64,000 nucleotides of DNA from Heptranchias perlo (Eukaryota), in assembly GCF_035084215.1 (NCBI RefSeq), contig NC_090353.1, forward strand, positions 17,732,001 to 17,796,000, written 5' to 3'. Positions 5,333-62,099 of the stretch are shown here, piece by piece. Below the pieces are notes generated by a model. The model was not told the DNA's origin, did no database searches, and saw only the letters and a program-made list of their open reading frames with translations. How positions within the stretch are numbered: the first letter of the stretch is position 1; every line of letters begins with the position of its first letter. The position numbers and the translations under genes are program-made.

Positions 5333-5640
5333 AGTAAGGAGGGGTGACTGTCCCTGTGAGAGGGCGCCCCGGTAAGGAGGGGTGGCTGTCCCCGTGGGAG
5401 GGCGCCCCGGTAAGGAGGGGTGACTGCCCCCGTGGGAGGGCGCCCCGGTAAGGAGGGGTGACTGCCCCCGTGGGAGGGCGCCCCGGTAAGGAGGGGTGAC
5501 TGCCCCCGTGGGAGGGCGCCCCGGTAAGGAGGGGTGACTGCCCCCGTGGGAGGGCGCCCCGGTAAGGAGGGGTGACTGCCCCCGTGGGAGGGCGCCCCGG
5601 TAAGGAGGGGTGACTGTCCCCGTGGGAGGGAACCCCAGTA
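5333..5640. repeat. 38-bp GC-rich minisatellite (GGTAAGGAGGGGTGACTGCCCCCGTGGGAGGGCGCCCC)n, about 8 copies
   Basis: Direct tandem unit, 38-nt period (5371, 5409 ...), no spacers. Confidence 0.95.
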
Positions 5641-6412
5641 AGGATTCAATATCTTGAGTGGAGAAAAATATCAACAAAAAAATTCTAGAAAATCGTTTGC
5701 AGACGTTTTATGGTAGAAACTGTGTCTTTTTAAAACAAAATATTCACTACTTGAACGATGTTCCAGGATATAGTGTCAGTGTGAAATGACCCAATAATCT
5801 GGTTATGATCTAACAGACTAGAAATGTTTTCTAATGACTTCAGAATGGTGGAGTCTCAGATTTTAATAAGACTGTATTCCACTTTTATTTACTGGAGCAA
5901 CTGACTTGATGGGTATGATTCAGCAACAGAGTCAGCTGGACTGGGCTCAGCTTTGTGTGGAGTTACAGATAAGCTATGAAAGGATTGAAGAATCTGCAGT
6001 TATTGTGGCATGGGATTTGACAATGTTTTACACCGTACACTGCACAGTATGGTCCAACAAGTAAAAGTGCTTTTTCTGAAGATATAGTTTTAATTTAGTG
6101 TTCCAGCATTTACCACAAAGTCTGACTAACTGAGTAATGACTACTGTGTAAAGACACTGACACATACTGTAAACTTTTGAGTCATGGGGAAAGTATAGAT
6201 TCCCATGGGATTCCCAGGCAGATACAAATCCTGTTGCCTAGCTGAACGCCAGAGTCCTGTCCGACAGTCTGAGGTACACCATCCATTTGAAACTTGTTGG
6301 GTGTGCGCTATTTTTAGGTGAGGATATTCCTATGGAGTAGCCGGGAACGAGCTGTATGGGTAGAAGCTTACATGATGCATTTTTTCCCACAGTGATGCTC
6401 TTCAAAGAAGTT

Positions 6413-7385: not shown

Positions 7386-10300
7386 GTAAGTGTTTTTTTT
7401 AAATGAATGAATCCCATACTTTTAACTGTTTACTGAATTTATAATAGTACAGAACCATGCTGCTGGATTTAATGGCTTGTTTTATAGTTATTAAAGAGAA
7501 GGAGTTGTGATTAAAATGGAACATCTGCTCTCAGCTTTGAACTCCTGGACACTCTGATGTCCACATTTAAGTTGCACAAGTTTTTTGGGGGGATGGGGGT
7601 GGATTTAAGTGGATTAGCACACTAACCATAAAACACCTGTAACTACTGTAATGCTTATTTACCATTTTACAGTACCATTCTACACAGACTAGACCGATTG
7701 TGCAGTGATCATTTATATAGGGTATAACTTTTATAATTTAATGGGAATACTTCTGGTGTCTGCTTGCATTAATGGATCTGCTGCATATTCATCGTAATCT
7801 GTGCAATGTCATCACTTTACCACTATCGTATCCATGTGTTAAAGTGCTGAAGGATCTCTCACCTGATCTTGCTACTTTTTTTGACAGAAAAGGCGGAGGC
7901 GGATAGACAGGAGTATGATTGGAGAACCAACAAATTTTGTTCACACATCGCACATGGGGGCTGGAGATATGTTTGGGGATCGAATGCACTCTGTAAGTGT
8001 CTCTAAAATATTTTGCAGGGTTACGAAATCATTTTCATTTGCTGCCTTGTTATTTTGTCTGCTTTGCAACTGTGGTGGAGAGCGAGCGAGCCAGCCAGCA
8101 ACTGAGCGGGTGAGCAAGTGCCTCATCCACTCCTAGGCCTAGGCCTCAGCCCCTCAATTCTGGTAACATCCTTGTATATCTTTTTTGCACTTTCTCCAGT
8201 GCTTCAATATCCTTTTTGTAGTATGGAGACCAGAACTGCACATAATACTCCAAGTGTAGTCTAACCAAGGTTCTATATAAGTTTAACATGACCTCCCTGC
8301 TTTTGTCTTCTGTTCCTCTAGAAATGAACCCCAGCACTTTCTTTGTACTCTTTATGGCCTTATCAACTTTTAGCGATTCATGTATATGTAATCCCAAATC
8401 TCTCTGCTCCTCTACCCCATTTAGTTTCTTACCCTCTAAGGAATAAGTGGCCTTATTCTTCCAAACAAAATGAACCACCTCACACTTTGTTATATTGAAT
8501 TTAATTTGCCATTTATCCTTCCACTCTGCAAGTCTGCTTATGTCTTTCTATGTTTTGGTGCAGCCCTCCACATTATCAGCTTTATCCCTCAATTTGGTAT
8601 CATCTGCAAATTTCGATACCATATCTCCAATTTCTGAGTCCAAATTATTTATGTGTATGATGAAAACAGTGGTCCCAGCACAGATCCCTGCGGGATATCG
8701 TTTCCCACTTTCTGCCAATCCGAGAAACTTCCCTTTTTAAATTTTTTTTTTATTCGTTCATGGGATGTGGGTGTCGCTGGCAAGGCCAGCATTTATTGCC
8801 CATCCCTAATTGCCCTTGAGAAGGTGGTGGTGAGCCGCCTTCTTGAACCGCTGCAGTCCGTGAGGTGAAGGTTCTCCCACAGTGCTGTTAGGGAGGGAGT
8901 TCCAGGATTTTGACCCAGCGATGATGAAGGAACGACGATATATTTCTAAGTTGGGATGGTGTGTGACTTGGAGGGGAACGCGCAGGTGGTGTTCCCATGT
9001 GCCTGCTGCCCTTGTCCTTTTAGGTGGTAGAGGTCGCGGGTTTGGGAGGTGCTGTGGAAGAAATCTTGGCAAGTTGCTGCAGTGCATCCTGTGGATGGTA
9101 CACACTGCAGCCACAGTGTGCCGGTGGTGAAGGGAGTGAATGTTTAGGGTGGTGGATGGGTGCCAATCAAGCGGGCTGCTTTGTCCTGGATGGTGTCGAG
9201 CTTCTTGAGTGTTGTTGGAGCTGCACTCATCCAGGCAAGTGGAGAGTATTCCATCACACTCCTGACTTGTGACTCGTAGATGACGGAAAGGTTTTGGGGA
9301 GTCAGGAGGTGAGTCACTCACCGCAGAATACCCAGCCTCTGACCTGCACTTGTAGCCACAGTATTTATGTGGCTGGTCCAGTTCAGTTTCTGGTCAATGG
9401 TGACCCCCAGGATGTTGATGGTGGGGGATTCGGCGATGGTAATGCCGTTAAATGTCAAGGGGAGGTCGTTAGACTCTCTCTTGTTGGAGATGGTCATTGC
9501 CTGGCACTTGTCTGGCGTGAATGTTACTTGTCACCTATCAGCCCAAGCCTGGATGTGTCCAGGTCTTGCTGCATGTGGGCACGGACTGCTTCATTATCTG
9601 AGGGGTTGCGAATGGAACTGAACACTGTGCAATCATCAGCGAACATCCCCATTTCTGACCTTATGATGGAGGGAAGGTCATTGATGAAGCAGCTGAAGAT
9701 TGTTGGGCCTAGGATACTGCCCTGAGGAACTCCTGCAGCAATGTCCTAGGGCTGAGATGATTGGCCTCCAACAACCACTACCATCTTCCTTTGTGCTAGG
9801 TATGACTCCAGCCACTGGAGAGTTTTCCCCCTGATTCCCATTGACTCCAATTTTACGAGGGCTCCTTGGTGCCACACTCGGTCAAATGCTGCCTTGATGT
9901 CAAGGGCAGTCACTCTCACCTCACCTCTGGAATTCAGCTCTTTTGTCCATGTTTGGACCAAGGCTGTAATGAGGTCTGGAGCCGAGTGGTCCTGGCGGAA
10001 CCCAAACTGAGCATTGGTGAGCAGGTTATTGGTGAGTAAGTGGTGCTTGATAGCATTTTCGACGACTCCTTCCATCATTTTGCTGATGATTGAGAGTAGG
10101 CTGAAGGGGCGCTAATTGGCCGGATTGGATTTGTCCTGCTTTTTGTGGACAGGACATACCTGGGCAATTTTCCACATTGTCGGGTAGATGCCAGTGTCGT
10201 AGCTGTACTGGAACAGTTTGGCTAGAGGCGCAGCTAGTTCTGGAGCACAAGTCTTCAGCGCTATAGCCAGGATGCTGTCAGGGCCCATAGCCTTTGCTGT

Positions 10301-13300
10301 ATCCAGTGCACTCAGCCGTTTCTTGCTATCACGTGTAGTGAATCAAATTGTCTGAAGACTGGCTTCTGTGATGGTGGGGATATCAGGAGGAGGCCGAGAT
10401 GGATCATCCACTCGGCACTTCTGGCTGAAGATGGTTGCAAACACTTCAGCCTTGTCTTTTGCACTCGTGCTGGACTCCGCCATCATTGAGGATGGGGATG
10501 TTTACAGAGCTTCCTCCTCCTGTTAGTTGTTTAATTGTCCACCACCATTCACGACTGGATGTGGCAGGACTGCAGAGCTTTGATCTGATCCGTTGGTTGT
10601 AGAATCGCTTAACTCTGTCTATAGCATGTTGGTTCTGCTGTTTAGCATCCATGTAGTCCTGAGTTGTAGCTTCACCAGGTTGGCACCTCATTTTTAGGTA
10701 TGCCTGGTGCTGCTCGTGGCATGCTCTTCTACACTCCTCATTGAACCAGGGTTGATCCCCTGATGTGTTGGTAATGGTAGAGTGAGGAATATGCCGGGCC
10801 ATTAAGTTACAGATTGTGACGGAATACAATTCTGCTGCTGCTGATAGCCCACAGCGCCTCATGGATGCCCAGTTTTGAGCTGCTAGATCTGTTCTGAATC
10901 TATCCCATTTAGCACAGTGATAGTACCACACAACACGTTGGATGGTGTCCTCAGTGCAAAGACGGGACTTCATCTCCACGAGGACTGTGCGGTGGTCACT
11001 CCTGCCAATACTGTCATGGACAGATGCATTTGCGACAGGTAGATTGGTGAGGACGAGGTCAAGTCGGTTTTTCCCTCGTGTTGGTTCGCTCACCGCCTGC
11101 CGCTGGCCCAGTCTGGCAGCTATGTTCTTCAGGACTCGGCCAGCTCGGTCAGTAGTGGTGCTACCGAGCCACTCTTGGTGGGGGACATTGAAATCCCCTA
11201 CCCAGAGTACATTCTGTGCCCTTGCTAACCTCAGTGCTTCCTCCAAGTGCTGCTCAACATGGAGGAGGACTGATTCATCAGCTGAGGGAGGACGGTAGGT
11301 GGTAATCAGCAGGAGGTTTCCTTGCCCATGTTTGACCTGATGCCATGAGATTTCATGGGGTCCGGAGTCAATGTTGAGGACTCCCAGGGCCACTCCCTCC
11401 TGACTGTATATCACTGTACCGCCACGTCTGGTGGGTCTGTCCTGCCGGTGGGACAGGACATGCCCAGGGAAGGTGATGGAAGAGTCTGGAATGTTGGCTG
11501 AAAGGTATGATTCTGTGGCTATGTCAGGCTGTTGCTTGACTAGTTTGTGGGACAGCTCTCCCAATTTTGGCACCAGTCCCCAGATGTTAGTGAGGAGGAC
11601 TTTGCAGGGTCGACTGGGCTTGGTTTGCCTTTGTCGTGTCCGGTGCCTAGTGGTCCGTCCGGTTTTATTCTTATTATGACTTTTTTTGGCGAGATTTTAC
11701 AACTGAGTGGTTTGCTAGGCCATTTCAGAGGGCAATTAAGAATCAACCACATTGCTGTGGGTCTGGAGTCACAAATCGGCCAGACTGGGTAAGGACGGCA
11801 GGTTTCCTTCCCTAAAGGACGTTAGTGAACCAGATGGGTTTTTATGACAATCCAGTAGTTTCATGGCTACCATTACTGGTACTAGTTTTTTTAATTCCAG
11901 ATTTTATTTAATTAATTGAATTTAAATTCCCCAGCTGCCGTGGTGGGATTTGAACTCATGAGTCATGAGTCTCTTATGTGGCACCTTACTGAAGGCCTTC
12001 TGAAAGTCTATGTATAACACATCCACTGCATTGCCCTTGTCTACTCTTTCTGTTATTTCTTCAAAGATTTTAGTAAGGTTTGTTAAACACGACCTTCCAT
12101 TCTGACTTTTTATTATATTCTCTGTCTGTAGATGTTTTGTCATCTTTTAGCAAAGATTCTAGTATCTTTTCTACCACTGACGTTAGGCTAACTTGTCTAT
12201 AGTTCCCTGCGTTGTTCTGTTTCTGTTTTGAAGATAGGAATTACATTTGCTGTTCGCCAGTTCTCTGGCACGGTTCCTTTGAATTCTTTTGAATTTTTAC
12301 ATTTGGATATTAGTGTTTCTGCTGTCCCCTCCCTAGTTCCTTTGAATATCCACGGGTGCAACCCATCTGGACTCAGGGCTTTGTCCTCAAGTTTGGCTAG
12401 TTTGTCTATTATCTTCTTTCTTTCTGTCTTAACTGTTGTAATATCCCTCTTGACTTATTCTGTCATTGTAATTTCGTCTTCAATGAAAACTGTGGTAAAG
12501 TATCTCTTCATTATCATCTCCTGTGAGTTTCTCTTGCTCATCCCTTAGTAGCCATATCCTCATCTTAATTCTCCTTTTTGTTATTTATGTGCCTATAGAA
12601 TACTTTGCTACTTTTTATGTTCTTTGATATTTTTATTTCATATTGCCTCTTTACCTTCCTAATTGTCTTTTTTTTACCTATTTCCTAAGCTCATCATATT
12701 CCCTTTTGTCATCCTCTCCTTTATTATTTATGTACCTTGGCTATGCCCCTTTCTTTAGGTTCAATTTTATCCTCACCTCTTTATTTATCCATGTCATCTC
12801 ATTCTTGGCTAGTCTGTTCTTATTTTTTAGTGGAATATATTTCTCCTGAACTCTATTGATTTCTCACTTTGGTAGGAAGAATAGAAAAACAGAATATTTT
12901 TTAAAGGGTGAGAAACTTTTAAATGTTGGTGTATAGAAGGATTTGGGTGTCTTTGTACATGAAACACAGAAAGTTAACATGCACGTACAACAAGCAATTA
13001 GGAAGGCAAATGGTATGTTGGCCTTTATTGTAAGGGGTTTGGAGTATAAGAGAAAGGAAGTCTTGCTACAATTGTACAGGGCTTTGGTGAGACCACACCT
13101 GGAGTACTGCATACAGTTTTGGTCTCCTTACCTAGGGAAGGATATACTTGCCTTAGAGGGGGTGCAACAAAGGTTCACTAGGTTGATTCCTGGGATGAGA
13201 GGGTTGTTCTATGAGGAGAGATTGAGTAGAATGGCCCCATAATCTCTGGAGTTTAGAAGAATGAGAGGTGATCTCATTGAAACATATAAGATTCTGAGAG

Positions 13301-22371: not shown

Positions 22372-22870
22372 CACAGTTCCCCAGCTGCTGACTCTCGCTG
22401 GGGCACAGTTCCCCAGCTGCTGACTCTCGCTGGGGCACAGTTCCCCAGCTGCTGACTCTCGCTGGGGCACAGTTCCCCAGCTGCTGACTCTCGCTGGGGC
22501 ACAGTTCCCCAGCTGCTGACTCTCGCTGGGGCACAGTTCCCCAGCTGCTGACTCTCGCTGGGGCACAGTTCCCCAGCTGCTGACTCTCGCTGGGATAGAG
22601 TGCCATAGGCGCTGACTCTCGCTGGGGCACAGTTCCCCAGCTGCTGACTCTCGCTGGGGCACAGTTCCCCAGCTGCTGACTCTCGCTGGGATAGAGTGCC
22701 ATAGGCGCTGACTCTCGCTGGGGCACAGTTCCCCAGCTGCTGACTCTCGCTGGGGCACAGTTCCCCAGCTGCTGACTCTCGCTGGGGCACAGTTCCCCAG
22801 GTGCTGACTCTCGCTGGGATAGAGTGCCACAGGCGCTGACTCTCGCTGGGGCACAGTTCCCCAGGTGCCA
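22372..22870. repeat. 32-bp minisatellite (CACAGTTCCCCAGCTGCTGACTCTCGCTGGGG)n, about 15 copies with an interspersed GATAGAGTGCCATAGGC variant
   Basis: Direct tandem unit; continues into a family-A copy at 22870-23120. Confidence 0.96.
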
Positions 22871-35800: not shown

Positions 35801-38800
35801 CCCTCCTCTCTGCCCCCCCCCCCCCCCTCTCTGTCCCGTCCCCCCCCCCCCCCCCCCTCTCTGTCCCGTCCCCCCCCCCCCCCCCCTCTCTGTCCCGTCC
35901 CCCCCCCCCCCCCTCTCTGTCCCGTCCCCCCCCCCCTCCCTCTCTGTCCCCCCCCCCTCTCTGTCCCGTCCCCCCCCCCCCCCCTCTCTGTCCCGTCCCC
36001 CCCCCCCCCTCTCTCGTCCCGTCCCCCCCCCCCCCCCTCCCTCTCTGTCCCGTCCCCCCCCCCCCTCCCTCTCTGTCCCGTCCCCCCCCCCCCCCTCCCT
36101 CTCTGTCCCGTCCCCCCCCCCCCCTCCCTCTCTGTCCCCCCCCCCCCCCCCCTCCCCTCTCTGTCCCGTCCCCCCCCCCCCCTCCCTCTCTGTCCCGTCC
36201 CCCCCCCCCCCTCCCTCTCTGTCCCGTCCCCCCCCCCCCANNNNNNNNNNNNNNNNNNNNNNNNNNNNNNNNNNNNNNNNNNNNNNNNNNNNNNNNNNNN
36301 NNNNNNNNNNNNNNNNNNNNNNNNNNNNNNNNNNNNNNNNNNNNNNNNNNNNNNNNNNNNNNNNNNNNNNNNNNNNNNNNNNNNNNNNNNNNNNNNNNNN
36401 NNNNNNNNNNNNNNNNNNNNNNNNNNNNNNNNNNNNNNNNTCCCCTGCTACCCCCCCTTGCCAGTTTTAAATGCTACTTTGCTGTACAGTGAAAGGATAA
36501 CTGGATATGATGCCTGTTGATCTTTAGCTAAAAAAAACAGTCCCTAGTACCAGCTGTCAATTCCAACAGTGTCGCTTGTGATACAACAAATCCATTGCTT
36601 GGTTCCTGTAAATTTAGACCTCAGCATCCTTTTAAGCAAGGTAAATAATTAACAGTGATAATATGGTATAGAGCGAAATAAAGGAGGTAATTGCATACAG
36701 TTGGTTGTCTCGTTTGCTGTGCCGTTGTGTTTTAATTCAGCAGCTGATTTAGATGTGGGTTTGGGTCAAGCACTAGCAGATATTGAATGGTGTGTACTTT
36801 CTATATTTGAACCTGCTAGTCTGATGCAGTTTACCCTGAATCTGCAGGTGCTATCTGAGTATGGGATGGTCCATGTGCTGTCTGAGAAGGAGCATGGAAA
36901 TACAAAAGATTACTGTATCCAGTTCAACCCCTCCTGGGCCTATTTACCTCATGATCTCAGTAAAGCGGTAAGTGTGCATCTGGGAACATTTGAGGACTGC
37001 AATACAATAATACTCGAGTAAAAGTAATCATCACGTACCTCTGGAACTCATCCTGGCATCTTGTTCCTTTAAAAACCTCTTGAAGCGGGATCCTGGACCA
37101 GCTGTGCAGCCTCTAAGCCCCCAATGTTGCAGGAAAACCCCCTAATTTCACTGCTCTATTGCCCTACCTGGAGCAGTGCAGTCAGAAGGTATGTCTGCAA
37201 CATTGGAAGTGGGCACAGGTGAATCTGGATGATCTATAAGGTATAAACTCATGTTTCTGGTTTACGGGACATTTATAGCATTTCAAAAAATGCTCTTGAA
37301 GTCTAAAACCAAAGTCCAAGATTAAAGAGGAGTGTATTATCTGAATTGTCAGTAACACTGAATAACACACAGGGAGGGAGATACCTGTACATGTCTTGGT
37401 ATCTCTCCATTCTCTCTTCTTCCAGTGTTATACTTTAAACATGCTGGTCGGATGCCACCAGGCAGCATATTTGTTCCTTGGGTGTCTCTCCTCTTGTCAT
37501 CTTGTGCAGTTCCTCTCTGGTGACACTTCAGTCACAACTGCCAGATTCCCTGTTCACGATGTCACTGAAAGGAAAATTCTGTGGAAAAGGTCAGCACCTG
37601 GGCCACCTGCACCCAGTAATTTTAAACATGAAGTTGGAACGAAGGAGGAATGGATGACCCCAGCATGTGTCTAGCTATCTTCTGCTGTAATAGATGTGGT
37701 TATGTGGCTATTATGTAGATATTTTTCCCCTTTAAATGTGACCCAGATTTGTATCTTACAATGATCAGCTGTTTGATGAACGTTTCACTCCAGTTTCTAA
37801 AGTAGGTAAATGACTGTTTTAATTGCTTGTGGAAAAAGTCCACAATTTATACCGTGTCCATAAACTAGAGTGAAAGATTTAAAATGCTCTTATATTTCCA
37901 GAGTGTCATACTATATGGGACTTTCTGTCATTCAGCTGGAGAATAGATCATAGAAAATAGGAGCAAGAGTAGGTCATTTGGCCCTTCGGGCCTGCTCCGC
38001 CATTCAAAATGATCATGGCTGATCGTCTAACTCAGTACCCTGTTCCCGCTTTTTCCCCATATCCCTTGATCCCTTTAGTATTAGCATTATCATCAGATAA
38101 TCAAGATGTAAATGTATAGATATCCAATGAGTACTGAGCCATACAGACATGAAGGACCCTTAGCTGATCTTGGCCAGGGTAGCAGTTGGGCTGTTATGAT
38201 TGGCCTCAGCATTTGGGCCAGGCAGGTGAAAATGAGCCAGGGTTGCTGTTCCTGATTTCTATTCACTGACCCCTAGCAGAAGTGCACTTTGTTAGACATC
38301 GTGTAAGGACAGGATCGGGCTTGAATACAGCGATCTCCACAGTTTAAATTCTTTGTTGACAGTGCTTTTTAAAAAAAGGAAGAAAACAAAATTTTCCCAG
38401 AGATTGCCCAGAATTTGCCCAGAGATTGCCCTTTTCAGATTTTTGTCAACACAGGCTGTGGCTCTGTCGCAATTGGTATCATGTTTATGATTCACCTCGT
38501 GTTGTGCATGTTAGTATACCATGTGTTTTTAAAGAGGTACTATTTTACTGTAAATATTCATTTTAAAATGATGCAGTTCCAGTGGTACCTGAGAGATTTA
38601 TTCGGACGCAGTGTTCTTTTTTTTAGCCAAAAGTTTTTTTTTGATTTACTAACAATGATTCTGAAAACATCTCGTCCACTCTGTTTAACCTGCACCTAAT
38701 ATTCTGTTCTTTCTCTCTCAGTCTCTCTTGCAGCTCCAGGACCTGACATCCTCTGTCCTGTGTACACCTTCAGATGTGCCCCAACAAGGTTTTAGCAATA

Positions 38801-47800: not shown

Positions 47801-50800
47801 CCCTATCTACTGCCTCAGCTATTTGCACAATCTTTGCCTCCCTCATGTCTTTAACTTTTTAAAATTATATATCTCTTCCCATCGTCTTATGTAAATATCA
47901 TCACTGCCATCCTACGATCTCCTGATTTTCTTTTAAGCATTGTAATAAACTGGATAGCCAGATGGTGAAGGATTTTTATTTATTCGTTCATGGGATGTGG
48001 GCGTCGCTGGCAAGGCCAGCATTTATTGCCCATCCCTAATTGCCCTTGAGAAGGTGGTGGTGAGCCGCCTTCTTGAACCACTGCAGTCCGTGTGGTGAAG
48101 GTTCTCCCACAGTGCTTTTGGGGAGTTCCAGGATTTTGACCCAGCGACGATGAAGGAACGGCAATATATTTCCAAGTTGGGATGGTGTGTGACTTGGAGG
48201 GGAACGTGCAGGTGGTGTTGTTCCCATGTGCCCGCTGCCCTTGTCCTTCTAGGTGGTAGAGTTTGTGGGTTTGGGAAGTGCTGTCAAAGAAGCCTTGGCG
48301 AGTTGCTGCAATGCATCCTGTGGATGGTACACACTGCAGCCACTGTGCGCCGGTGGTGGAGGGAGTGAATGTTTAGGGTGGTGAATGGGATGCCAATCAA
48401 GCAGGCTGATTTGTCCTGGATGGTGTCTAGCTTCTTGAGTGTTGTTGGAGCTGCACTCATCCAGGCAAGTGGAGAGTATTCCATCACATTCCTGACTTGT
48501 GCCTTGTAGATGGTGGAAAGGCTTTGGGGAGTCAGGAGGTGAGTCACTCGCCGCAGAATACCCAGCCTCTGACCTGCTCTCGTAGCCACAGTATTTATAT
48601 GGCTGGTCCAGTTAAGTTTCTGGTCAATGGTGACCCCCAGGATGTTGATGGTGGGGGATTCGGCGATGGTAATGCCGTTGAATGTCAAGGGGAAGTGGTT
48701 AGATTCTCTCTTCTTGGAGATGGCCATTGCCTGGCACTTGTTTGGTGCGAATGTTACTTGCCATTTATCAGCCCAAGCCTGGATGTTGTCCAGGTCTTGC
48801 TGCATGTGGGCACGGACTGCTTCATTATCTGAGGGGTTGCGAATGGAACTGAACACTGTGCAATCATCAGCGAACATCCCCACTTCTGACCTTATGATGG
48901 AGGGAAGGTATTTGATGAAGCAGTTGAAGATGGTTGGGCGTAGGACACTGCCCTGAGGAACTCCTGCAGCAATGTCCTGGGGCTGAGATGATTGGCCTCC
49001 AACAACCACTACCATCTTCCTTTGTACTAGGTATGACTCCAGCCACTGGGGAGTTTTCCCCCTGATTCCCATTGACTTCAATTTTACTAGGGCTCCTTGG
49101 TGCCACACTCGGTCAAATGCTGCCTTGATGTCAAGGTCAGTTACTTTTACCTCACCTCTGGAATTCATCTCTTTTGTCCATGTTTGGACCAAGGCTGTAA
49201 TGAGGTCTGGAGCCGAGTGGTCCTGGCGGAACCCAAACTGAGCATCAGTGAGCAGGTGCCGCTTGATAGCACTGTCGACGACACGTTCCATCACTTTGCT
49301 GATGATTGAGAGTAGACTGATGGGGCGGTAATTGGCCGGATTGGATTTGTCCTGCTTTTTGTGGACAGGATATACCTGGGCAATTTTCCACATTGTCAGG
49401 TAGATGCCAGTGTTGTAGCTGTATTGGAACAGCTTGGCTAGAGGCGCGGCTAGTTCTGGAGCACAAGTCTTCAGCACTACAGCCGGGAGGTTGTCGGGGT
49501 CCAAAGCCTTTGTTGTGTCCAGTGCACTCAGCCATTTCTTGATATCATGTGGAGTGAATCGAATTGTCTGAAGACTGGCTTCAATGATGGTGGGGATATC
49601 GGGAGGAGGCAGAGATGGATCATCTACTCAGCACTTCTAGCTGAAAATGGTTGCAAATGCTTCAGACTTGTCTTTTGCACTCACGTGCTGGACTCTGCCA
49701 TCATTGAGGATGGGGATGTTTACAGAGCCTTCTCCTCCCATTAGTTGTTTAACTGTCCACTACCATTCACGTTGATTCCCTGGCTTGTTGGTAATGGTAG
49801 ATTGTGGAAAACACCGGGTAATGAGGTTACAGATTGTGCTGGAATACAATTCTGCTGTTGCTGATGGCCCACAGCGCCTCATGGATGCCCAGTTTTGAAT
49901 CTATCTCATTTAGCACAGTGGTAGTGCCACACGTTGGATGGTGTCCTCAGTGCGAAGACCGGACTTCGTCACTGCTACTAATACTGTCATGGATGCATCT
50001 GCGACGGGTAGATTGGTGAGGATGAGGTCAAGTAGGTTTTTCCCTCGTGTTGGTTCGCTCACCACCTGCCGCAGGCCCAGTCTGGCAGCTATGTCGTTCA
50101 GGACTCGGTCAGCTCGGTCAGTCGTGGTGCTACCGAGCCACTCTTGGTGATGGACCCAGAGTACATTCTGTGCCCTTGCTAACCTCAGTGCTTCCTCCAA
50201 GTGGTGCTCAACATGGAGGAGGACTGATTCATCAGTTGAGGGAGGGCGATAGGTGGTAATTAGTAGAAGGTTTCCTTGCCCATGTTTGACCTGATGCCAT
50301 GAGATTTCATGGGGTCCGGAGTCAATGTTGAGGACTCCCAGGGCCACTCCCTCCTGACTGTATGTCACTGTACTGCTACCTCTGGTGGGTCTGTCCTGCC
50401 AGTGGGACAGGACATACCCAGGGATGGTGATGGAGGAGTCTGGGATGTTGGCTGAAAGGTATGATTCTGTGAGTATGGCTATGTCAGGCTTTTGCTTGAC
50501 TAGTCTGTGGGACAGCTCTCCCAATTTTGGCACAAGTCCCCAGATGTTAGTGAGGAGGACTTTGCAGGGTCGACTGGGCTTGGTTTGCCTTTGTCGTGTC
50601 CGGTGCCTCGTGGTCTGGCCGGTTTTGTTCTTATTATGACTTTTTGTAGTGATTTTTTACAAATGAGTGGATTGCTAGGCCATTTCAGAGGACGATTAAG
50701 AATCAACCACATTGCTGTGGGTCTGGAGTCACATATAGGCCAGACCGGGTAAGGATGGCAGGTTTCCTTCCCTAAAGGACATTAGTGAACCAGATGGGTT

Positions 50801-53800
50801 TTTACGACAATCCGGTAGTTTCATGGCCACCATTACTGATACTAGTTTTTTTTTTATTCCTGAATTTTATTTAATTAATTGAATTTAAATTCACCAGCTG
50901 CCGTGGCGGGATTTTAACTCGTGTCTCTGGATTATTAGTCCGGGCCTCTGGATTACTAGTCCAATAACATAACCACTATGCTACCGTACCCTAGGATAGA
51001 ATACTAGATCCTAGTCTTTAGTTGCTTCCAAGCCTTTATTCACAGAGATCCACACACCAACACCACACCCGAGATAAGGATATATACATCATGAAAATGG
51101 ATACAAGAGAGTCCCCAATTGATACACACCACCTGAATACATTTATCACTAATTGATATAAATCATACAATTAACAAGCATGTTGCACATCATTGCTTCT
51201 TCTCCTGTGAATGTTCACTTCCTTTTTCCTTTTGTTCTGATCCAATATAAATGCTGTTCATTTTACCAGTGCTGATAAAAGGTTATTCTCAGAACATTGA
51301 CTTGTCTGTTCCCTACACAGATGCTGACTGACTTCTGTATTTCCAGCATTTTCTGTTTCTGTTTTAAATTTCCAACATTTTCGGTTTTTTGCTTTTTATT
51401 ACCTTGAAGATGTGTGGTTATTGTATATTGGTACACGTTTGCACTACCTGGCCTTGAAATTATGTAATGTGAATATTCATGTGCTAATTATTAGCCCATC
51501 ATGTGAGAGTCCTGATCTGCTAGTTTAGTGGAGGTTGTTTTAACCCACTTACGGGCAAAGGAATTTCATGCAATCAAGAATTTGTATAATAGTCACACTA
51601 TGTAATTATACACTAATAGTCACTCTAATTTATACTCTAATATTTGCACCATGTAATTTATACACTAATATTTGCACCATGTAATTATACTCTAATATCC
51701 ACACCATGGAATTTATATACCAATGTTCACACTGCATAATTTGTACACTTATATTTGGATCACTTTATTTTAAGACCAAAGATTACAAACACGCACATGT
51801 GTTTTCTCACAGTCTGAAATTTTACAATTCCTATATTAGTTTGTTAACCTTAAGTAAAAACCTGAGTTAATAAAAGTTACTGTTTTTAAAATTACTTGAA
51901 ACTGAGCAAAGATGTTATCTGTTTTAAAAAGCACATCCCAGGTATAAAACTAAGTGGCTCAGAGACTGATGGATCTTGAGTATATAGCAAAATTGTACTG
52001 CATCATGTTTGTATTAATCCCATGCCCATATGTGCAGTAAATTACTGTACAAACCTTTAGCTTTGTGACACTGAATGGATTCTATTTCATAGATGGGCCT
52101 GGGTCTTGCAAGACACTCTGGGAATCGCCTTTTGCCTTTATATGTTGAAAACAATCAGATTACCAACTTTTAAGGTACAGTGCCTTAAGTTGAGTTGCAT
52201 GAAAACTAACCAATTGTGATGTAATTACTTTAAAGAATGTTTTAAAACCCCACCATCATGCATCCTATCAGCTGATCCACATGGACTGTGTAACGTGCAG
52301 AATGGCTGACAGTGCATGATAGATGTTCTAACTCCTAGTTGAAGTTAGCCGTCACCTGAAAAATTGATTTTTTTTCCTCAGTTACTTCAGGAGCAATATC
52401 CACTGCAGGTACCCCTTCACCAGCTTCTCACCCTTTAATTCTCCTCCTCCCCCCCCCCCCCCCACCCCCCCACTTCTGTGTTGCATAAAAGTTGTAGAAC
52501 GTGAACTGTGAGCTGTTTCAGTACTGGGGTGGTGAGGCACTTCAACCGACACACTCTAAACATCCTGGGCTGAAGGACTGATCGATACAAGAAGGTTTCT
52601 CCCTGAAAGCAACCTTTTCTAGTCCTCCAGATCCGGAGAGTTTCAAGGGATGAAGCCGAACTATTTATCCGTACTGTGCCTCTTCTTATATTAAGTGAGC
52701 AAAGCTGATCTCACCTAGGGATAATTTCAGCTCCCAGTGAAACTAACTTGTACGTTTAATATGAGAAGAAGCAGAGGCCAAATGAAATGAGCTCATATTT
52801 GGACCAGGAGCCATGTGTTAGACACTCCTGCATTAGGCAGTGCAACGTGGTGGACCACCCTCCCCAACCAATAGTAAATGCTGCAGCTGATACTCTGGAT
52901 ATAAGAGTGCCGAGAGTCGGAATGGCTACCCTACTTCCTTATTAACGGGTCAGATTTTCAGAAATCCTTCTGAAACTTTTACATTTAAAGTATGATCAGG
53001 ATCTGGGAGCTCTGAACTTGACAGTTAAATTAGTGGTCTGTACCATATATGCAGCAATTTCCAATTAAACTGTTAGATGGCGCTAACTGCAAATTATAGG
53101 CGATTGCTGTCCTGTTAATAGTAAAGGCCAGGGTCCAAGACACGTGCGCCTAATGCGAGCGTTTATACTTCCATCCCAAGCGAGGCCCAACACCTTGGGA
53201 TGCTGTAGTTGGTATGCTCTGCTGGTGAGGGTGCACCTGTTTTAGAGCTCCAGACTGCCGCCGCACATACAAAGACAGGTATGGCAATGGTTGCATACCG
53301 GTGGTAATGCCCAAAGATTGAGAGGAAGCCTGTATTATGATCATTGTTACTGGCCCCATACAAGTAACAATGGCAGATCATCTATCAACCTTGGGGCTCC
53401 CTTGAGTGGAGGGCAGGCAGAGTTAGGTAATATTGGTAGCTTTGCTGTACTTTCCGATGTAATGCCACACTGGGAATTTTGTTGGTTGGGAGGATTAGAC
53501 TGGAGCTGACACAATGTAAATCCATTGCCTGCCCATCATGCTGGGAGATCTTGTTCTGCCATCGCAGTCAGAGCAGCACTGGGCTGTGTTGTCCTCATTC
53601 AATTATTTGAGCTGCATTTGTAATCTGAACAATATGACTGTAGTTTGACATTCAGACATGGTGGATGTAATACTCTCGTCAATTCGTCTGCTAGTTCCTG
53701 GCTTTAATTTAGTAAGTACAACGTTTTAAAGAGATCAGATAGTGAATGCATTTTATGATGTGTGAAATTTTTTTTAAAATTATGATCTAGACTTGAGTGT

Positions 53801-56800
53801 TCTGTGTATTAATGTAAATTATTTAGTGCCCAGTGCCTCTGATTTGTGCAACTAGATCGACCCTTAACATATCCGTTTTGTAAATGGGGCATAATCACTA
53901 AAGAATCATAGAATGTTCCAGCATAGAAGCAGGCCATTCAGCTTATCAAATCTGCACTGGTGTTTTCTCCACATGTGCCACAGACTCGAATCTCACTGAA
54001 CTGCTCACCCTACATACTCTTTAGTGTTTCTCTTTTTCAAAACAACTATTTAATTCCCTTTTAAAAGAATTTCTCGGACCCTGCTTCAGCAAAGGTTTCT
54101 GGCAGACAATTCCATGTGCCAATTACACCCTGTAAAGAATTTTTTTCTAACCTCCCCTTTAATTCTTTTTGTGACCATCTTAAATTTGTGCCCTCTCTTT
54201 ACCGTCTCGCTGTAAAGTGGAAATAATCTGTCACTATTTACCTTATCATAACCCTTACTAATCTTGAAGACCTCTATCAGGTCACTCCTTAACTTTCTCA
54301 GCTCAACTGAGAAAGAGACCTAACTTCTCCAGTCTCTTTTCATAACTATAACCCCTCATCCCCGGTAACATCCTAATGAATCTGCACTGCACCTTTTTCC
54401 ATTGCTGTTGTAGCCTTCCTATAATGGGGTGCCCATAACTGCACATACTCTTTTTATTTATAACGTGGTGTGTGCACCAGTTTCCACTGGATGGGTGTTG
54501 GTTTATTGTTAATGGTTTGGCATTTGGAAGCATGAGTTATAGATTACAATGCCCTTATTGCATACTTATGAAATGTTTTCATAACAATAGAAAACATTTT
54601 GCTTTCTGCTTTCTAAATAATGCTTGTGAGTTTACTCTTAAGTGGCGCCGACTATCTGAGAAATTGCTGGTAATAGGGTCTGACCATCTTAAAATCCAGC
54701 TTAGAGTAGCATATGTTACAGTTTGCTGTGCCGCTTACTAGCAATTTATGTGTGCGTTTTCTTGTAGTTAATCAGTAATTTGGTCATTTTCATTTTACAG
54801 TCAACAGTATCATCTAGATTAACCCTTTGTGAACTTCCCTGATGATGCAATTGGTAAAGTGACCCAAGAATAGTGAGGGGTGAAATCAGCCAGGGTTCCT
54901 GCTCCTGATCACTATCGAGTGACCCCTGCTGAAAAGTGCACTTGTGTGGATGTCGGGTGGATAGGATCAGGCTTGGCTGTGTTCCCTCTCACAGTCAAGT
55001 AGCTGCCAGCATACACATGAAGAATGACCACTTGGGCATGGGTGCCTGACATTCAGTGAACTGTACCTACCAGGGAGTCAGTGCTTAGGGAAGTGTTACC
55101 CAGCAGGGAGTCAGTGCTTGGGGAAGTTTTACCCAGCAGGGAGTCAGTGCTTGGGGAAGTTTTACCCAGCAGGGAGTCAGTGCTTGGGGAAGTGTTACCC
55201 AGCAGGGAGTCAGTGCTTGGGGAAGTTTTACCCAGCAGGGAGTCAGCGCTTGGGGAAGTTTTACCCAGCAGGGAGTCAGTGCTTGGGGAAGTTTTACCCA
55301 GCAGGGAGTCAGCACTTGGGGAAGTTTTACCCAGCAGGGAGTCAGCACTTGGGGAAGTTTTACCCAGCAGGGAGTCAGCGCTTGGGGAAGTTTTACCCAG
55401 CAGGGAGTCAGCGCTTGGGGAAGTTTTACCCAGCAGGGAGTCAGCGCTTGGGGAAGTTTTACCCAGCAGGGAGTCAGCGCTTGGGGAAGTTTTACCCAGC
55501 AGGGAGTCAGCGCTTGGTGAAGTTTTACCCAGCAGGGAGTCAGTGCTTGGGGAAGTGTTACCCAGCAGGGAGTCAGTGCTTGGGGAAGTGTTACCCAGCA
55601 GGGAGTCAGTGCTTGGGGAAGTGTTACCCAGCAGGGAGTCAGTGCTTGGGGAAGTGTTACCCAGCAGGGAGTCAGTGCTTGGGGAAGTTTTACCCAGCAG
55701 GGAGTCAGTGCTTGGGGAAGTGTTACCCAGCAGGGAGTCAGTGCTTGGGGAAGTTTTACCCAGCAGGGAGTCAGTGCTTGGGGAAGCGTTACCCAGCAGG
55801 GAGTCAGCGCTTGGGGAAGTGTTACCCAGCAGGGAGTCAGTGCTTGGGGAAGTGTTACCCAGCAGGGAGTCAGTGCTTGGGGAAGTGTTACCCAGCAGGG
55901 AGTCAGTGCTTGGGGAAGTGTTACCCAGCAGGGAGTCAGTGCTTGGGGAAGTGTTACCCAGCAGGGAGTCAGTGCTTGGGGAAGTGTTACCCAGCAGGGA
56001 GTCAGTGCTTGGGGAAGTGTTACCCAGCAGGGAGTCAGTGCTTGGGGAAGTGTTACCCAGCAGGGAGTCAGTGCTTGGGGAAGTTTTACCCAGCAGGGAG
56101 TCAGTGCTTGGGGAAGTTTTACCCAGCAGGGAGTCAGTGCTTGGGGAAGTTTTACCCAGCAGGGAGTCAGTGCTTGGGGAAGTGTTACCCAGCAGGGAGT
56201 CAGTGCTTGGGGAAGTGTTACCCAGCAGGGAGTCAGCGTGATCAGTTGAGGAAGGAGAAAACTTATATTTTTAAATCAACCTTGTACGATCCTCAGTCAC
56301 TTGTTTCACAAAAAAACTATCCATATTCCTTTGAATTTGCCAATAGTATCATGTTTCATACTGTTAGTTGGACTGATATTTAAAAAGTTTATTGATGATG
56401 AGAACTCTCTAAGCTTTTTATGTTAGTTGCAGTAGTAACCATTTCCCAGCCACAGATGGTGATTATATTTTACTTCAGTAGTATCCGTTTCCCAGACTCT
56501 AATAGTGTTTATATTTTAGTAACCACTCCCAGACTCTGATGATGATGATTATATTTTACTCCAATAGTAATCATTCCCAGACTCTAATGGTTTATATTTT
56601 ACTCCAGAAGTAGCCGTTCCCAGACTCTCATGGTGTTTACATTTACACCCGAAGTAACCGTTCCCAGACTCTCATGGTGTTTATATTTTACTCCAGTAGT
56701 AATTGTTCCCAGACTCTAATGTTTATAAATGTCTATTTATTCCAGGCTTGCACACTACTGCTGGTGGTTCTTTTCGTTTATGATATTTTCTTTGTCTTCA

Positions 56801-59800: not shown

Positions 59801-62099
59801 GGTGTAGAATTGTTTTCCTTTATGCTTAGGCTGTTCCTCTCCTCCTCAGCTCCCAATGGTACTGAAGGTGCCCCGATTGAATTCCTCACCTCTGGCACTG
59901 TGTGACAGGCCATTCTCCCTCCTGGGCTTTGGCGATGTCTTAATACCAGGTAAAGAATCTCTCAGAATAGTGATCTGCTTTAGTCCTGACAGGTTATCCT
60001 CAAATATTTGTGTGATAGGAGACAGAACTGTATAGGATTTATTTTTTTCTCTCTGAATTTTGGATTTGCCATGAAGTGGCTGTCCTCTTGAACAGGACTG
60101 CCATTTATTATGCATTTCCCTGGCTGGGGAGCAGAAACACTATGGTTCATTGCTGAGCCTCAGCCTCGAATACCAGTGGGAGGCCAACACCTTGTGGTAC
60201 TTACATTTTTTTCTAAGCTTATCAGTCTGTATTCAATTAAAAAATATTGTTTCTCAACCACTCGAGGATAAGACCATTACGTAGGGTCTTCATTCTGGAA
60301 TTCCCTTTGATCTTAGTTGTAAAAATCCTGGAACTCCCTACCTAACAGCACTGTGGGAGAACCTTCACCACACGGACTGCAGAGGCTCAAGAAGGCGGCT
60401 CACCACCACCTTCTCGAGGGCAATTAGGGATGGGCAGTAAATGCTGGCCTTGCCAGTGACGTCCACATCCCATGAACGAATTTTTAAAAGAAAAATAATA
60501 TTGCAGTTTCTCTCTCTTTCCCCCCCTCTCAAAATGTAAGCAACACCTTCCTGCTTTATTTTTCTTTCAGGAATGTTGGTGGCGTACTGTCACAGGTTTG
60601 ACATTCAGGTGCAGACGTCAAGAATCTACTTCATGGCCTGCACGATCGGTAGGTGCCAACATCTGTTTTGACATTATAACAAAACAAAACTGGAGCAAGA
60701 ACTTTACTAATGGATATATACTTTAACAGGAAACATTTGCAGGGCTATGGGGAAAGAGCGGTGGGGGGAGGGAGGGGAGGGGAATGGGACTAATTGGATA
60801 TCACAGGTATGATGGGCCGAATGGTTTCTTTCTGTGCTGTAAGAGTCTATAAGTAGAAGCCCCTCACGATGCACTATTACTATCGAATAATACATAATTT
60901 TTGTACCCCTCGACTTGCAATGATTTGAAAAGGTGGAATCGAGGGAGGGAGTGCAGTTTTCTGTAGAATTGGCTGATTTTACACTGCTGATGCTTTTCTC
61001 AGCCGGGCTGTTTAATTTCAGGCTGTAACGATTGAAGCTGGACAGTTGAGAGATGTAACACGCATACAATCCAACTGAGTAGCGAGGATGTTTAAACAAA
61101 ATTGAGGCACACCATATATTGTGTACAGAAATATCTGAATCTTGGTTAAGATAGTAGACACTCGGGTAGAAAATTGTGGCATTTCTCTCTAACGTTGGAC
61201 ACAAGAAATACATAAGAAAAATATCAAGAACAGCTTAACCTCAACAACTATACTGACAAGTGGAGGCAAAAGAATCCAGGAATGCAGGAAATCTGAAATA
61301 CACAGCAGACCTATTAGCATCTGAAAGAGAAAAGATAGGTTAATGTTTTGGGTAGAGACTCTTTGTCAGAACCATCACAGGCTGGAGAAGACCTTTTATG
61401 TTTGATCAAACCATGGGTGGGAGGGAAGGGAGAACAGGTATTCAAGACTTTGTACCTATTAATTACTTCCACAAGGAGGCAGTTGATGGATTTAATAGCC
61501 TGTAATAACAGCTTTTAAGATGCTGGAAAGAAATGCAGACCGTTTTGCACTATACAAAGGTCATTTGAAACACGGTGTTGTATATGTAAGCATTGGAAAG
61601 ATAAAAATGGTGAATCAGGCATGCCTCCAAAATAGAAGGGAAAATAGTGGAATGGGAATAAGATCTACTGGGAAAACGCAACAGGAAAATTAGAGCCAGG
61701 GCCTGAATTTGGTGAAGTTGATGTTCACAGAAGAAGCCTGCTAAATGCCCAGGAGGAAGATGAGACAGATTCTAGCTTAGTGCAAGTAAATATTTTTTTA
61801 AATTTCAGCCAAATGAGAGTGAGTACAGTGGTGTGTGATTTTCCAGTTTCTACACATTCTTTTCATGTTTACACAAGTGTTGGCTGTACATTAAAGTCTG
61901 TGTGTTCTCCACTGCAGCTTACGGCATCGGTCTTCTCATCACCTTTGTCGCCCTGGCACTGATGCAGACGGGTCAGCCCGCGCTCCTTTACCTGGTCCCG
62001 TGCACTCTGATCACTAGCATCTGTGTGGCTTGCTGGCGCAAGGAAGTGGCAATGTTCTGGAGTGGAAGTGGATTTGCGGTGAATACCAGTTTGATATGA
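29825..62099 (+). CDS. SPPL2B: Signal peptide peptidase-like 2B (GxGD intramembrane aspartyl protease); exons 29825-29873, 36848-36967, 38722-38904, 42472-42561, 44204-44343, 45921-46060, 46936-47032, 47151-47261, 52093-52174, 56746-56820, 57756-57818, 59850-59949, 60571-60648, 61918-62078 (read-through stop at 62099; a further terminal exon probably lies beyond the window)
   Basis: All introns GT-AG with consistent phases for exons 2-14; PA domain (MRGNCTFYEKVRLAQ), YD, LGFGD and QPALLYLVP motifs; EYGMVHV..DYCI..LPHDLSKA typical of SPPL2B; LSM7 synteny. Confidence 0.96.
29950..36460. repeat. C-rich low-complexity tandem array (CTCTCTGTC core plus poly-C) with three N gaps, in SPPL2B intron 1
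   Basis: Units GGCCTCTCTGTCTC(C)n, then CTCTCTGTCCCCT, CTCCCTCTCTGTCA and CTCCCTCTCTGTCCCGT; gaps 30814-31055, 34642-34782, 36241-36440. Confidence 0.97.
36848..36967 (+). CDS. SPPL2B: SPPL2B exon 2
   Basis: VLSEYGMVHVLSEKEHGNTKDYCIQFNPSWAYLPHDLSKA; CAG/GTAAGT. Confidence 0.93.
37945..38085 (-). mobile_element. CR1 3'-end fragment
   Basis: CATAGAAAATAGGAGCAAGAGTAGGTCATTTGGCCCTTC, the reverse complement of a CR1 tail. Confidence 0.7.
38722..38904 (+). CDS. SPPL2B: SPPL2B exon 3 (PA domain)
   Basis: SLLQLQDLTSSVLC..MRGNCTFYEKVRLAQINGAKGLLIVSRESL, 183 nt. Confidence 0.95.
39720..40090 (+). mobile_element. Degenerate L2-like 3' fragment
   Basis: Weak similarity to 19030-19350 (LHWLP..FKIL region). 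Confidence 0.45.
40880..41125 (-). mobile_element. CR1 3'-end fragment
   Basis: KNFFTQQVVMIRNALPERMVEADSIVAFKKELNKYL plus tail. Confidence 0.8.
42472..42561 (+). CDS. SPPL2B: SPPL2B exon 4
   Basis: VPPGGNGSQYEEIDIPVALLSYDDMLDISK. Confidence 0.93.
43660..43985. mobile_element. Putative hAT (Charlie-type) non-autonomous element
   Basis: TIR-like CAGGGCATTCCAAACT ... AGTTTGGACAATGCTG; TSD degenerate. Confidence 0.45.
44204..44343 (+). CDS. SPPL2B: SPPL2B exon 5
   Basis: TFGKSIKVAMYAPNEPFLDYNMVVIFVMAVGTVAIGGYWAGSKDVK. Confidence 0.95.
44660..44990 (-). mobile_element. CR1 3'-end fragment
   Basis: GESRTRGHGLKI..RKHFYTHRVIEVWNSL plus tail. Confidence 0.85.
45290..45615 (-). mobile_element. tRNA-derived SINE, LF-SINE-like (family B)
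   Basis: Minus-strand head GGTGGTGCAGTG..CCTTTCACCTCTGGTACCTGGGTTTAAATCC and body GTGCTGTACCTGATCTGGGAGTGTTTGATG; related pieces at 57060-57190 and 62480-62710. Confidence 0.5.
45921..46060 (+). CDS. SPPL2B: SPPL2B exon 6
   Basis: RYMKHKHDGADKQDDETVDVTPIMICIFVVMCCSMLVLLYYFYSQL. Confidence 0.95.
46936..47032 (+). CDS. SPPL2B: SPPL2B exon 7
   Basis: VYIIIGIFCLASSIGLYSCLSPFVRRIPFCECR. Confidence 0.94.
47151..47261 (+). CDS. SPPL2B: SPPL2B exon 8
   Basis: IPDLSSSHKRPQVRMLFLGMFCVSVSGVWAVFRNED. Confidence 0.93.
47941..51176. mobile_element. ~215-bp putative solo LTR (TGTAA...TTAACA) with 5-bp TSD AGCAT, split by the LINE
   Basis: AGCAT at 47936-47940 and 51177-51181; TG..CA ends; minus-strand AATAAA near 51035. 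Confidence 0.6.
47973..50991 (-). mobile_element. tRNA-headed CR1-group APE-RT LINE, copy 2 (complete 5' head, internal deletion near 49770)
   Basis: 406-aa RT ORF ([30 protein letters not shown]) and APE ORF; A box 50973-50984, B box 50908-50920; AGGAT TSD-like flanks. Confidence 0.94.
51590..51760. repeat. Degenerate ~30-bp AT-rich tandem repeat (CACCATGTAATTTATACACTAATATT)
   Basis: Visible periodicity. Confidence 0.65.
52093..52174 (+). CDS. SPPL2B: SPPL2B exon 9
   Basis: WAWVLQDTLGIAFCLYMLKTIRLPTFK. Confidence 0.95.
53900..54450 (-). mobile_element. CR1 3' fragment
   Basis: KVQCRFIRMLPGMRGYSYEKRLEKLGLF plus CR1 tail. Confidence 0.8.
55061..56237. repeat. 33-bp minisatellite (CCCAGCAGGGAGTCAGTGCTTGGGGAAGTKTTA)n, about 35 copies
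   Basis: Direct tandem unit; grows out of the 3' end of a family-A copy (54870-55090). Confidence 0.97.
56430..56745. repeat. Degenerate ~44-bp tandem repeat (7 units) forming the acceptor region of SPPL2B exon 10
   Basis: Units CAGTAGTAACCGTTCCCAGACTCTAATGGTGTTTATATTTTACTC. Confidence 0.8.
56746..56820 (+). CDS. SPPL2B: SPPL2B exon 10 (catalytic YD)
   Basis: ACTLLLVVLFVYDIFFVFITPFLTQ. Confidence 0.96.
57756..57818 (+). CDS. SPPL2B: SPPL2B exon 11
   Basis: SGESIMVEVAAGPSDFSTHEK. Confidence 0.94.
58334..58915. mobile_element. Putative MITE-like element
   Basis: Imperfect TIRs AGCCCAGAAATTCCA ... TGGAATTTCTACCCT. Confidence 0.35.
59850..59949 (+). CDS. SPPL2B: SPPL2B exon 12 (catalytic GxGD)
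   Basis: LPMVLKVPRLNSSPLALCDRPFSLLGFGDVLIP. Confidence 0.96.
60320..60482 (+). mobile_element. 3' terminal fragment of the tRNA-headed LINE family
   Basis: AAAATCCTGGAACTCCCTACCTAACAGCACTGTGGGAGAACC...CACATCCCATGAACGAAT, near-identical to the reverse complement of 8750-8910. Confidence 0.9.
60571..60648 (+). CDS. SPPL2B: SPPL2B exon 13
   Basis: GMLVAYCHRFDIQVQTSRIYFMACTI. Confidence 0.95.
60720..60845 (+). mobile_element. CR1 3'-tail fragment
   Basis: TTTGCAGGGCTATGGGGAAAGAGCG..GATGGGCCGAATGG..TTCTGTGCTGTA. Confidence 0.6.
61270..61770 (-). mobile_element. Penelope-like element 3' remnant
   Basis: Minus strand resembles the GIY-YIG C-terminal region (LIFLLG..NINFTKF) followed by a terminal repeat with decayed hammerhead-like core. 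Confidence 0.55.
61918..62099 (+). CDS. SPPL2B: SPPL2B exon 14 (PAL motif); donor at 62079 or read-through VNTSLI*
   Basis: AYGIGLLITFVALALMQTGQPALLYLVPCTLITSICVACWRKEVAMFWSGSGFA|VNTSLI*. Confidence 0.94.

Follow-up and report, generated by a model that had tools for sequence, protein, structure and literature searches.

Autonomous long interspersed nuclear elements (LINEs) are usually assigned to RNA polymerase II (Pol II) and short, non-coding SINEs (short interspersed nuclear elements) to RNA polymerase III (Pol III) (PMC10886601, PMC5786205); the latter source treats autonomous LINEs as Pol II units and describes SINEs as unable to encode protein. Among the LINEs, Stuart et al. 2026 (PMC13343379) have published seven elasmobranch Zenon consensi of 2.9-3.3 kb (SquAca_Zenon-1/2/3, CarCar_Zenon-1, ScyCan_Zenon-1, RhiTyp_Zenon-1 and HypSab_Zenon-1), which are A-tailed, more than 84% alike and devoid of ORF1, a feature that is not special to them because all Zenon elements lack ORF1 (PMC13343379). 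Here we analyze a 64,000-nucleotide (nt) stretch of the Heptranchias perlo genome (contig NC_090353.1, positions 17,732,001 to 17,796,000; hereafter the window), in which a full-length yet decayed element, copy 2 (47973..50991, minus strand), is a copy of the elasmobranch CR1-Zenon LINE and begins with a tRNA-like head. In the available text of PMC13343379, the terms tRNA, Pol III and polymerase III never occur in the main text, and the supplement is likewise without tRNA; hence the family is already known, and the novelty lies in the type of promoter. We lean towards transcription of the Zenon master copies from end to end by Pol III, starting from this head, as the best single explanation of the head itself, of a depletion of T-runs on the sense strand, of a missing AUG and of the SINE-like derivatives of the element.

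Several described systems come close to this arrangement. In Lepidoptera, a single-ORF Zenon also yields derivatives made of its 5' and 3' parts with variable breakpoints, the Persaeus elements (Wang et al. 2019, PMC6740152), which differ in having, in the accessible part of that account, neither tRNA homology nor a Pol III promoter; the deletion derivatives described below are SINE-like because their parent carries a tRNA-derived head. The bipartite SINEs Bov-tA, SINE2-1_ACar and SINE2_Gav (Kojima 2015, PMC4494074; Kojima 2018, PMC5786205) likewise join a tRNA head to the 5' and 3' parts of a LINE, but there it was a non-coding, deleted LINE that acquired the head. Finally, RTE-1_DAn and related elements are LINEs said to contain tRNA-like sequence, in a single sentence of the consulted portions of these papers that gives no position, promoter or T-run analysis (PMC4494074, PMC5786205). 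That sentence is the nearest hint we found, and no description of a Pol III-transcribed autonomous LINE turned up in the literature covered, which does not extend to Repbase Reports and subscription journals. A functional parallel is offered by R2, an autonomous single open reading frame (ORF) carried on an uncapped, non-Pol II RNA and translated without a standard AUG; it differs from the Zenon element in its co-transcription with rRNA by Pol I, its release by a ribozyme, its endonuclease and its site specificity.

The Zenon element and its tRNA-like head

Copy 2 shares 87-94% identity with a young, intact member of the family and starts with GGGTACGG at 50991 (all its features lie on the minus strand). 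The head (50900..50991), which aligns with tRNA-Ser(AGA) of the source genome and also resembles tRNA-Thr(AGT), comprises an A box TAGCATAGTGG (50973..50984), assigned from its sequence and from column conservation, an anticodon-arm hairpin with loop CTAGTAA (50948..50964), a second hairpin that nearly duplicates the first and is placed as a long variable arm would be (50927..50943) and a B box (50908..50920) mutated to GAGTTAAAATCCC, the family majority being GAGTTCAAATCC. The rest of the 5' untranslated region (UTR), an AT-rich linker and a conserved body that is kept in short derivatives (50660..50899, the conserved block beginning at 50803), leads to the remnant of a single ORF for an APE endonuclease and a reverse transcriptase (RT), which has no AUG at its start and encodes about 970 amino acids (aa) when intact (48036..50656). 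The APE domain begins with LLTNIWGL at 50534..50557, the RT catalytic FADD motif lies at 48863..48874, and the element closes with an AATAAA about 40 nt before its end (48022..48027) and a short A-rich tail (47973..47984). With a 198-nt deletion at 49771, several smaller deletions, stops and a mutated B box (GTTAAAATC), copy 2 is dead.

The first-pass annotation of the window had placed the 5' start, both boxes and the body block at these positions, and had put LLTNIWGL about 430 nt from the 5' end; the positions hold, and the distance is 434 nt. It had further claimed that copy 2 and a second element, copy 1 (8743..11964, minus strand), have the same head-to-ORF junction. Copy 1 belongs to the same Zenon family and lies inside a CR1; it is 5'-truncated, starting at element nt 64, and for this reason has no A box while retaining the predicted perfect B box (11945..11957, minus strand). 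The fusion itself stands, since it recurs at independent loci, whereas the A box of copy 1 does not. A further piece of this family, from the 3' end, lies at 60319..60500 on the plus strand and finishes with T5 and then an A-run.

To describe the family, two sets of copies from the source genome were used: an older set of 40 loci, scored from thousands of candidates retrieved with head plus APE, and a young set of 40 copies fetched from protein search matches and selected by their ORF irrespective of the head. Head and APE occur together, by construction of the search, in 39/39 older-set loci outside the window; most of these loci start at an identical base in unrelated flanks, and most run for about 3.3 kb through to the tail, with a mean divergence of 3.5% from the column majority. 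The protein-selected copies provide the independent evidence, for 15/40 start at nt 1 and 30/40 within nt 1-19, the remaining 10/40 being truncated at nt 78-342, and an alternative 5' end or an ORF1 was seen in none of these 40. Conversely, 26 of the 29 loci recovered with the head alone extend well into the ORF, and in the other three the 3' end follows directly on a point within the first 560 nt. Head and ORF thus move as one unit, as the first-pass annotation had proposed, and the tRNA-derived head is the fixed 5' end of an autonomous, ORF1-less APE-RT element. Independent insertion of a SINE ahead of a LINE is ruled out by the sharp 5' end common to unrelated flanks, together with the published consensi. 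Target-site duplications were absent from 13 of the 18 full copies tested, and short or repeat-derived in the remainder.

Among the best 51 matches of the protein search, 46/51 are stop-free within the match and 42/51 have frames of 965-984 aa, and the young copies are 97-99% identical to one chosen young copy. The family is young in the source genome, with many intact copies, and probably still active; the consulted text of PMC13343379 reports almost no intact ORFs in its species (0/2313, 1/1419 and 3/612). Older, diverged subfamilies yielded decayed fragments with 67-78% identity. Contigs from four presumed RNA sequencing runs, of four other organisms, contain the whole element (30/30 bins) at 85% likeness, a type of evidence in which start, strand and cap are not visible. 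Zenon copies are frequently nested in or adjacent to one another, in some cases with opposite orientations (L230, L104, L123, L126, L277 and L286), and three loci (L044, L051 and L052) share flanks through segmental duplication and are 99.4% identical. Pieces of the ORF, 72-84% identical, also occur in four shark gene models (P0012, P0027, P0028 and P0034), as exonisation or annotation artefacts.

The assignment to Zenon rests on organization and on sequence. The organization is that of Zenon, with a 350-nt 5' UTR, no ORF1, a poly(A) tail in place of a microsatellite tail and a single APE and RT frame of 967-984 aa, in whose product Pfam recognizes APE and RVT_1 only. Homologues are single proteins of 930-990 aa and 33-43% identity, and a quick tree, made without named Zenon references, groups the element with such single-ORF proteins (SH-aLRT 82), apart from canonical CR1 of the source genome. 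The first 400 nt, through the APE start, match the published elasmobranch consensi and are nearly identical to those of the spiny dogfish (SquAca), and a 13-nt head motif matches SquAca_Zenon-2 and SquAca_Zenon-3; apart from the motif search, this and all further comparisons with published Zenon consensi were made by eye and over these 400 nt only. In the text available, the elasmobranch elements of PMC13343379 also share with ours the length of about 3.3 kb, the lack of ORF1, the APE and RT domains, the A-tail and the position of the head in the first 400 nt. The body block, which had been said to resemble the Meta domain of MetaSINEs (66 bp, placed directly behind their tRNA head), was compared with known SINE domains by two motif searches and by eye, without full alignment. 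The Meta resemblance failed this comparison, since published Meta sequences look dissimilar and a 19-nt core motif gave 0 matches at 3 mismatches. For the Deu domain of DeuSINEs and SacSINE1, a 15-nt core motif also gave 0 matches at 3 mismatches, the body being only faintly like the Deu row of AmnSINE1 by eye, and UCON3 gave no recognisable match.

Local alignment of the window head to tRNA-Ser(AGA), taken from the ARAGORN-labelled tRNA genes of the source genome, scores 60 against a shuffle maximum of 49, and for the young head the scores are 56 (Ser) and 52-54 (Thr(AGT)), with shuffle maxima of 46-51. Rfam gives a weak and partial tRNA match (18.7 bits) across the D and anticodon arms. These alignments indicate a tRNA-derived head, with tRNA-Ser(AGA) or tRNA-Thr(AGT) as a possible donor. 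A functional tRNA is ruled out, given this partial match and the failure of ARAGORN to find one. Dense clusters of tRNA-Ser(AGA)-like motifs, spaced by about 3 kb over several Mb, were observed in contigs G000:C1414 and C1089 and correspond to tandem tRNA gene arrays.

Within the family, the A and B box columns are 88-100% conserved across copies. Both boxes are present in the first 400 nt of 7/7 published elasmobranch consensi, the stingray B box being degenerate, and they are canonical (TGGCNNAGTGG / GGTTCGAATCC) in the white, whale and cat shark consensi, in which the hairpin between them differs in sequence; that the boxes stay canonical while the intervening hairpin diverges suggests that they are maintained. 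None of the seven has TTTT in this region. On the other hand, no such head was seen in the first 400 nt of three hagfish and coelacanth Zenon consensi, which do have an early TTTT; since hagfish, coelacanth and moth Zenons lack the head, it was probably gained in the elasmobranch ancestor.

The head might instead be a signal of RNA structure and no promoter, acting as a tRNA mimic for RNase P cleavage at nt 1 of longer Pol II transcripts or as an internal ribosome entry site (IRES). Such a role would account for the precise 5' end, for the folding of the 5' 415 nt, which is better than that of shuffles (z=-3.5), and for a second hairpin that varies in sequence between sharks yet stays a hairpin by eye. 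We nevertheless consider this very improbable: pairing in the acceptor and T stems looks poor by eye whereas the box sequences are kept, ARAGORN and Rfam give little sign of a tRNA fold, as noted above, and the depletion of T-runs would be left unexplained. An IRES function of the head is, for its part, compatible with transcription by Pol III.

Sense-strand T-runs and the translation start

T-runs of four, which stop Pol III, are nearly absent from the sense strand of the element. In the young copies, tails excluded, we counted 6 TTTT in 130,244 nt, none fixed, and in the older copies 19 in 114,803 nt, at no more than two copies per site, one in a tail and none fixed (the older count leaves out L051, with a duplicate flank, and L064, with an insertion). 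CR1 elements of the source genome served as controls and hold 55 TTTT in 22,486 nt at 22% T (2.4 per kb) and, in a second sample with 24-28% T, 116 in 28,884 nt (4.0 per kb), with nine recurrent sites; a search for other intact LINE controls found only CR1 and the Zenon family among the 20 of 150 matches fetched. As first noted by eye, copy 1 has no sense TTTT and copy 2 has two, both private to it (49808..49811, adjoining the 198-nt deletion, and 49644..49647). The expectation of 5-6 by chance at about 22% T, which accompanied that observation, was too high, for the T content is 20-21% and chance predicts 3.8-4.6 TTTT per element.

The absence of TTTT from one intact copy has P=0.010-0.012 under a whole-element null (3.8-4.3 expected) and, for the ORF alone, P=0.05 under codon shuffling (2.55 expected). 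Runs of three or more T are more telling, with 6 in the ORF against 13.2 under codon shuffling (P=0.0003), while runs of G, C and A are as frequent as expected. Metagenomic relatives behave differently: among the 73 of 80 loci used (7 without a PQGS ORF of at least 400 aa were left out), 73/73 carry at least 3 TTTT in the ORF, the observed-to-expected ratio of T3 is 0.77-1.25, compared with 0.46 in the element here, and an upstream B-box motif is lacking in 72/73, with one distant match in the remaining relative. The T-run depletion is thus real and T-specific. Among 40 of the 389 variants listed for the sequencing-run contigs, 9 are changes to T, and none of these creates TTTT in the reference context. 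Taken with the results on the 5' end, the refuting outcomes named in the first-pass annotation (a normal TTTT count, an alternative 5' end or ORF1, an independent SINE insertion) did not appear at the sequence level.

These counts bear directly on the possibility that the element is an ordinary Pol II Zenon with a captured SINE as its 5' UTR, in which head or body acts as an internal Pol II promoter, or the A and B boxes only open chromatin, and in which T-poverty is a compositional quirk of the lineage. The T-poor sense strand (20%) and the modest P for TTTT alone agree with this, as do the AATAAA near the end, the A-tail and the existence elsewhere of Zenons that are ORF1-less, A-tailed and without a Pol III promoter. 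We find it doubtful, given that the depletion of T-runs goes beyond codon usage and is absent from CR1 and relatives, that both boxes were kept across sharks and a ray though the sequence between them diverged, and that there is no AUG for cap-dependent scanning.

Shared (master-lineage) non-CpG changes in the ORF are synonymous in 28/38 cases, compared with 488/1723 (28%) of the private ones, and this excess means that the ORF has been translated and is under purifying selection. The first Met lies beyond the endonuclease, at aa 244-286, in 37/38 correctly oriented copies (L233 and L268, mis-oriented in this count, have the correct orientation in the young-set T-run count). Shared changes in codons 1-41 are synonymous in 7/9 cases in the APE frame and 2/9 in the +1 frame, and the two recurrent indels measure 15 and 3 nt. 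Homologues carry an AUG at about the position of the ORF start, where the element here has none. Two candidate starts were rejected: with the exception of 2/79 copies, one or two stops come after an in-frame ATG in strong context that lies 9 codons upstream, and the ATG seen in six published Zenon consensi, which is in a different frame, is replaced by ATA here. A 34-codon upstream ORF (L239:724-828, element nt 179-283) opens with an ATG cluster, in the frame of the main ORF with stops between, and 6/9 of the 5' UTR ATGs are in the main-ORF frame. With no AUG at the ORF start, initiation must be unconventional, by a near-cognate start, by read-through or reinitiation, or by an IRES, which fits an uncapped RNA without proving it.

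Translation could also be uncoupled from the RNA that is copied. In such a division of labour, Pol III would make the copied RNA, and the protein would come from capped Pol II host transcripts reading through intronic or intergenic copies and would act in trans. Translation of an uncapped RNA would then not be needed; 39% of whale-shark CR1-Zenon-like sequence is intronic, and the efficiency with which non-coding head-plus-tail forms have been mobilised demonstrates activity in trans. The strong purifying selection on the ORF is, however, easier to understand if each RNA makes its own protein, and translating an internal, AUG-less ORF would be difficult from a host mRNA as well, so that this division seems to us quite unlikely.

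3' ends, deletion derivatives and neighbouring repeats

Of 112 tails, AATAAA precedes the end in 107/112 and an A-run terminates 107/112, and in 19/112 a run of T4-T10 stands directly before the A-run, which in these copies would place a terminator precisely at the end. A similar layout is found in the T+ tRNA-derived SINEs (B2, Dip, Ves; Vassetzky et al. 2021, PMC8466645), which share the A/B-box head, the AATAAA and, in some copies, a T-run before the A-tail; they differ in being short, non-coding, mammalian and L1-dependent, and a T4 or longer run is found here in only 19 of the 112 tails. T-runs within and at the start of short A-tails (L231, L233, L246, L283, L235 and window copy 1) suggest frequent A-to-T tract conversion.

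A pattern joining the end of the body to the tail has 117 exact matches in the source genome (control 0), with many different junctions, and many of the 30 matches fetched are head-plus-tail elements of about 450 nt that are 74-96% identical in the head region. Similar head-to-tail joints occur in the same sequencing-run contigs that carry the whole element. These derivatives are short and non-coding, as SINE2 elements are, which the 3.3-kb element with its selected ORF is not. The earlier proposal that SINEs arise from this LINE by internal deletion therefore holds as far as the existence of the derivatives goes, and stops short of establishing the LINE as parent: it may be the parent of the SINE, or its head may have been captured from a SINE. 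Some older SINE-like derivatives (L105, L108 and L118) have one of the two head hairpins only and, hence, a shorter spacing between the boxes.

As regards the surroundings of the window copies, a minus-strand CR1 (8152-8721 and 11964-14300) is split by Zenon copy 1 and by the 3' end of a plus-strand CR1 (12865-13600), the tail of which resembles CR1-1_CM of the hagfish-paper supplement. The window also contains five tandem arrays (1-2587, 5334-5644, 22372-22868, 29926-36517 and 55064-56238), four of them with periods of about 38, 38, 32 and 33 nt and the other a C-rich array of 6.5 kb interrupted by N stretches; the long stop-free frames in these arrays are repeat artefacts.

Proposed transcription by Pol III and its significance

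The proposed transcription by Pol III would operate as follows. TFIIIC would bind the A and B boxes and Pol III would start at nt 1; selection on the master copies would purge T4, and also T3, which is one step from T4, keeping the 3.3-kb RNA uncut, and transcription would stop at a T-run in or just past the A-tail. Translation of this uncapped RNA would begin at a non-AUG codon among roughly the first 7-16 of the frame, the Zenon protein would copy the RNA by target-primed reverse transcription, and internal deletions would give SINEs that retain promoter and tail.

Several observations weigh against this explanation. Pol III has been described as weakly processive (PMC10886601), and the translation of an uncapped RNA is unexplained. 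At the 3' end, the AATAAA is also compatible with processing of a Pol II transcript, just one T is present in most tails, and similar T-runs occur inside some A-tails; because the T-runs in T+ SINE tails can grow by A-to-T change after insertion (PMC8466645), those seen here are ambiguous as terminators. The statistics are likewise sensitive to the null, for the absence of TTTT, when taken by itself, reaches P=0.05 with codon shuffling and weakens to P=0.07-0.12 under a first-order Markov null, one metagenomic relative has a T3 z-score as low as that of the element (-3.06 vs -2.81), and the 0/21 shared changes to T that create T3 are too few for significance. The Zenon family is one evolutionary datum, so that the T-run signal rests on one lineage. 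We see an even chance for the full scenario, in which an autonomous LINE would have combined, since the common ancestor of sharks and rays, a tRNA promoter, a full-length 3.3-kb Pol III transcript and translation free of cap and AUG, while also spawning SINEs by internal deletion.

Even if Pol II proved responsible, the searchable literature contains no description of an autonomous LINE that has retained a tRNA head in both sharks and rays. The compact intact element, available in dozens of intact copies, is suited to direct testing in cell culture, and it could inform the design of Pol III expression cassettes and of retrotransposon-based gene insertion. If Pol III transcription is true, a natural Pol III messenger, 3.3 kb long and coding for a vertebrate protein of 970 aa, would break the customary split between Pol II and Pol III; it would require an initiation signal independent of both cap and AUG, and it would provide a one-step route to the birth of SINEs.

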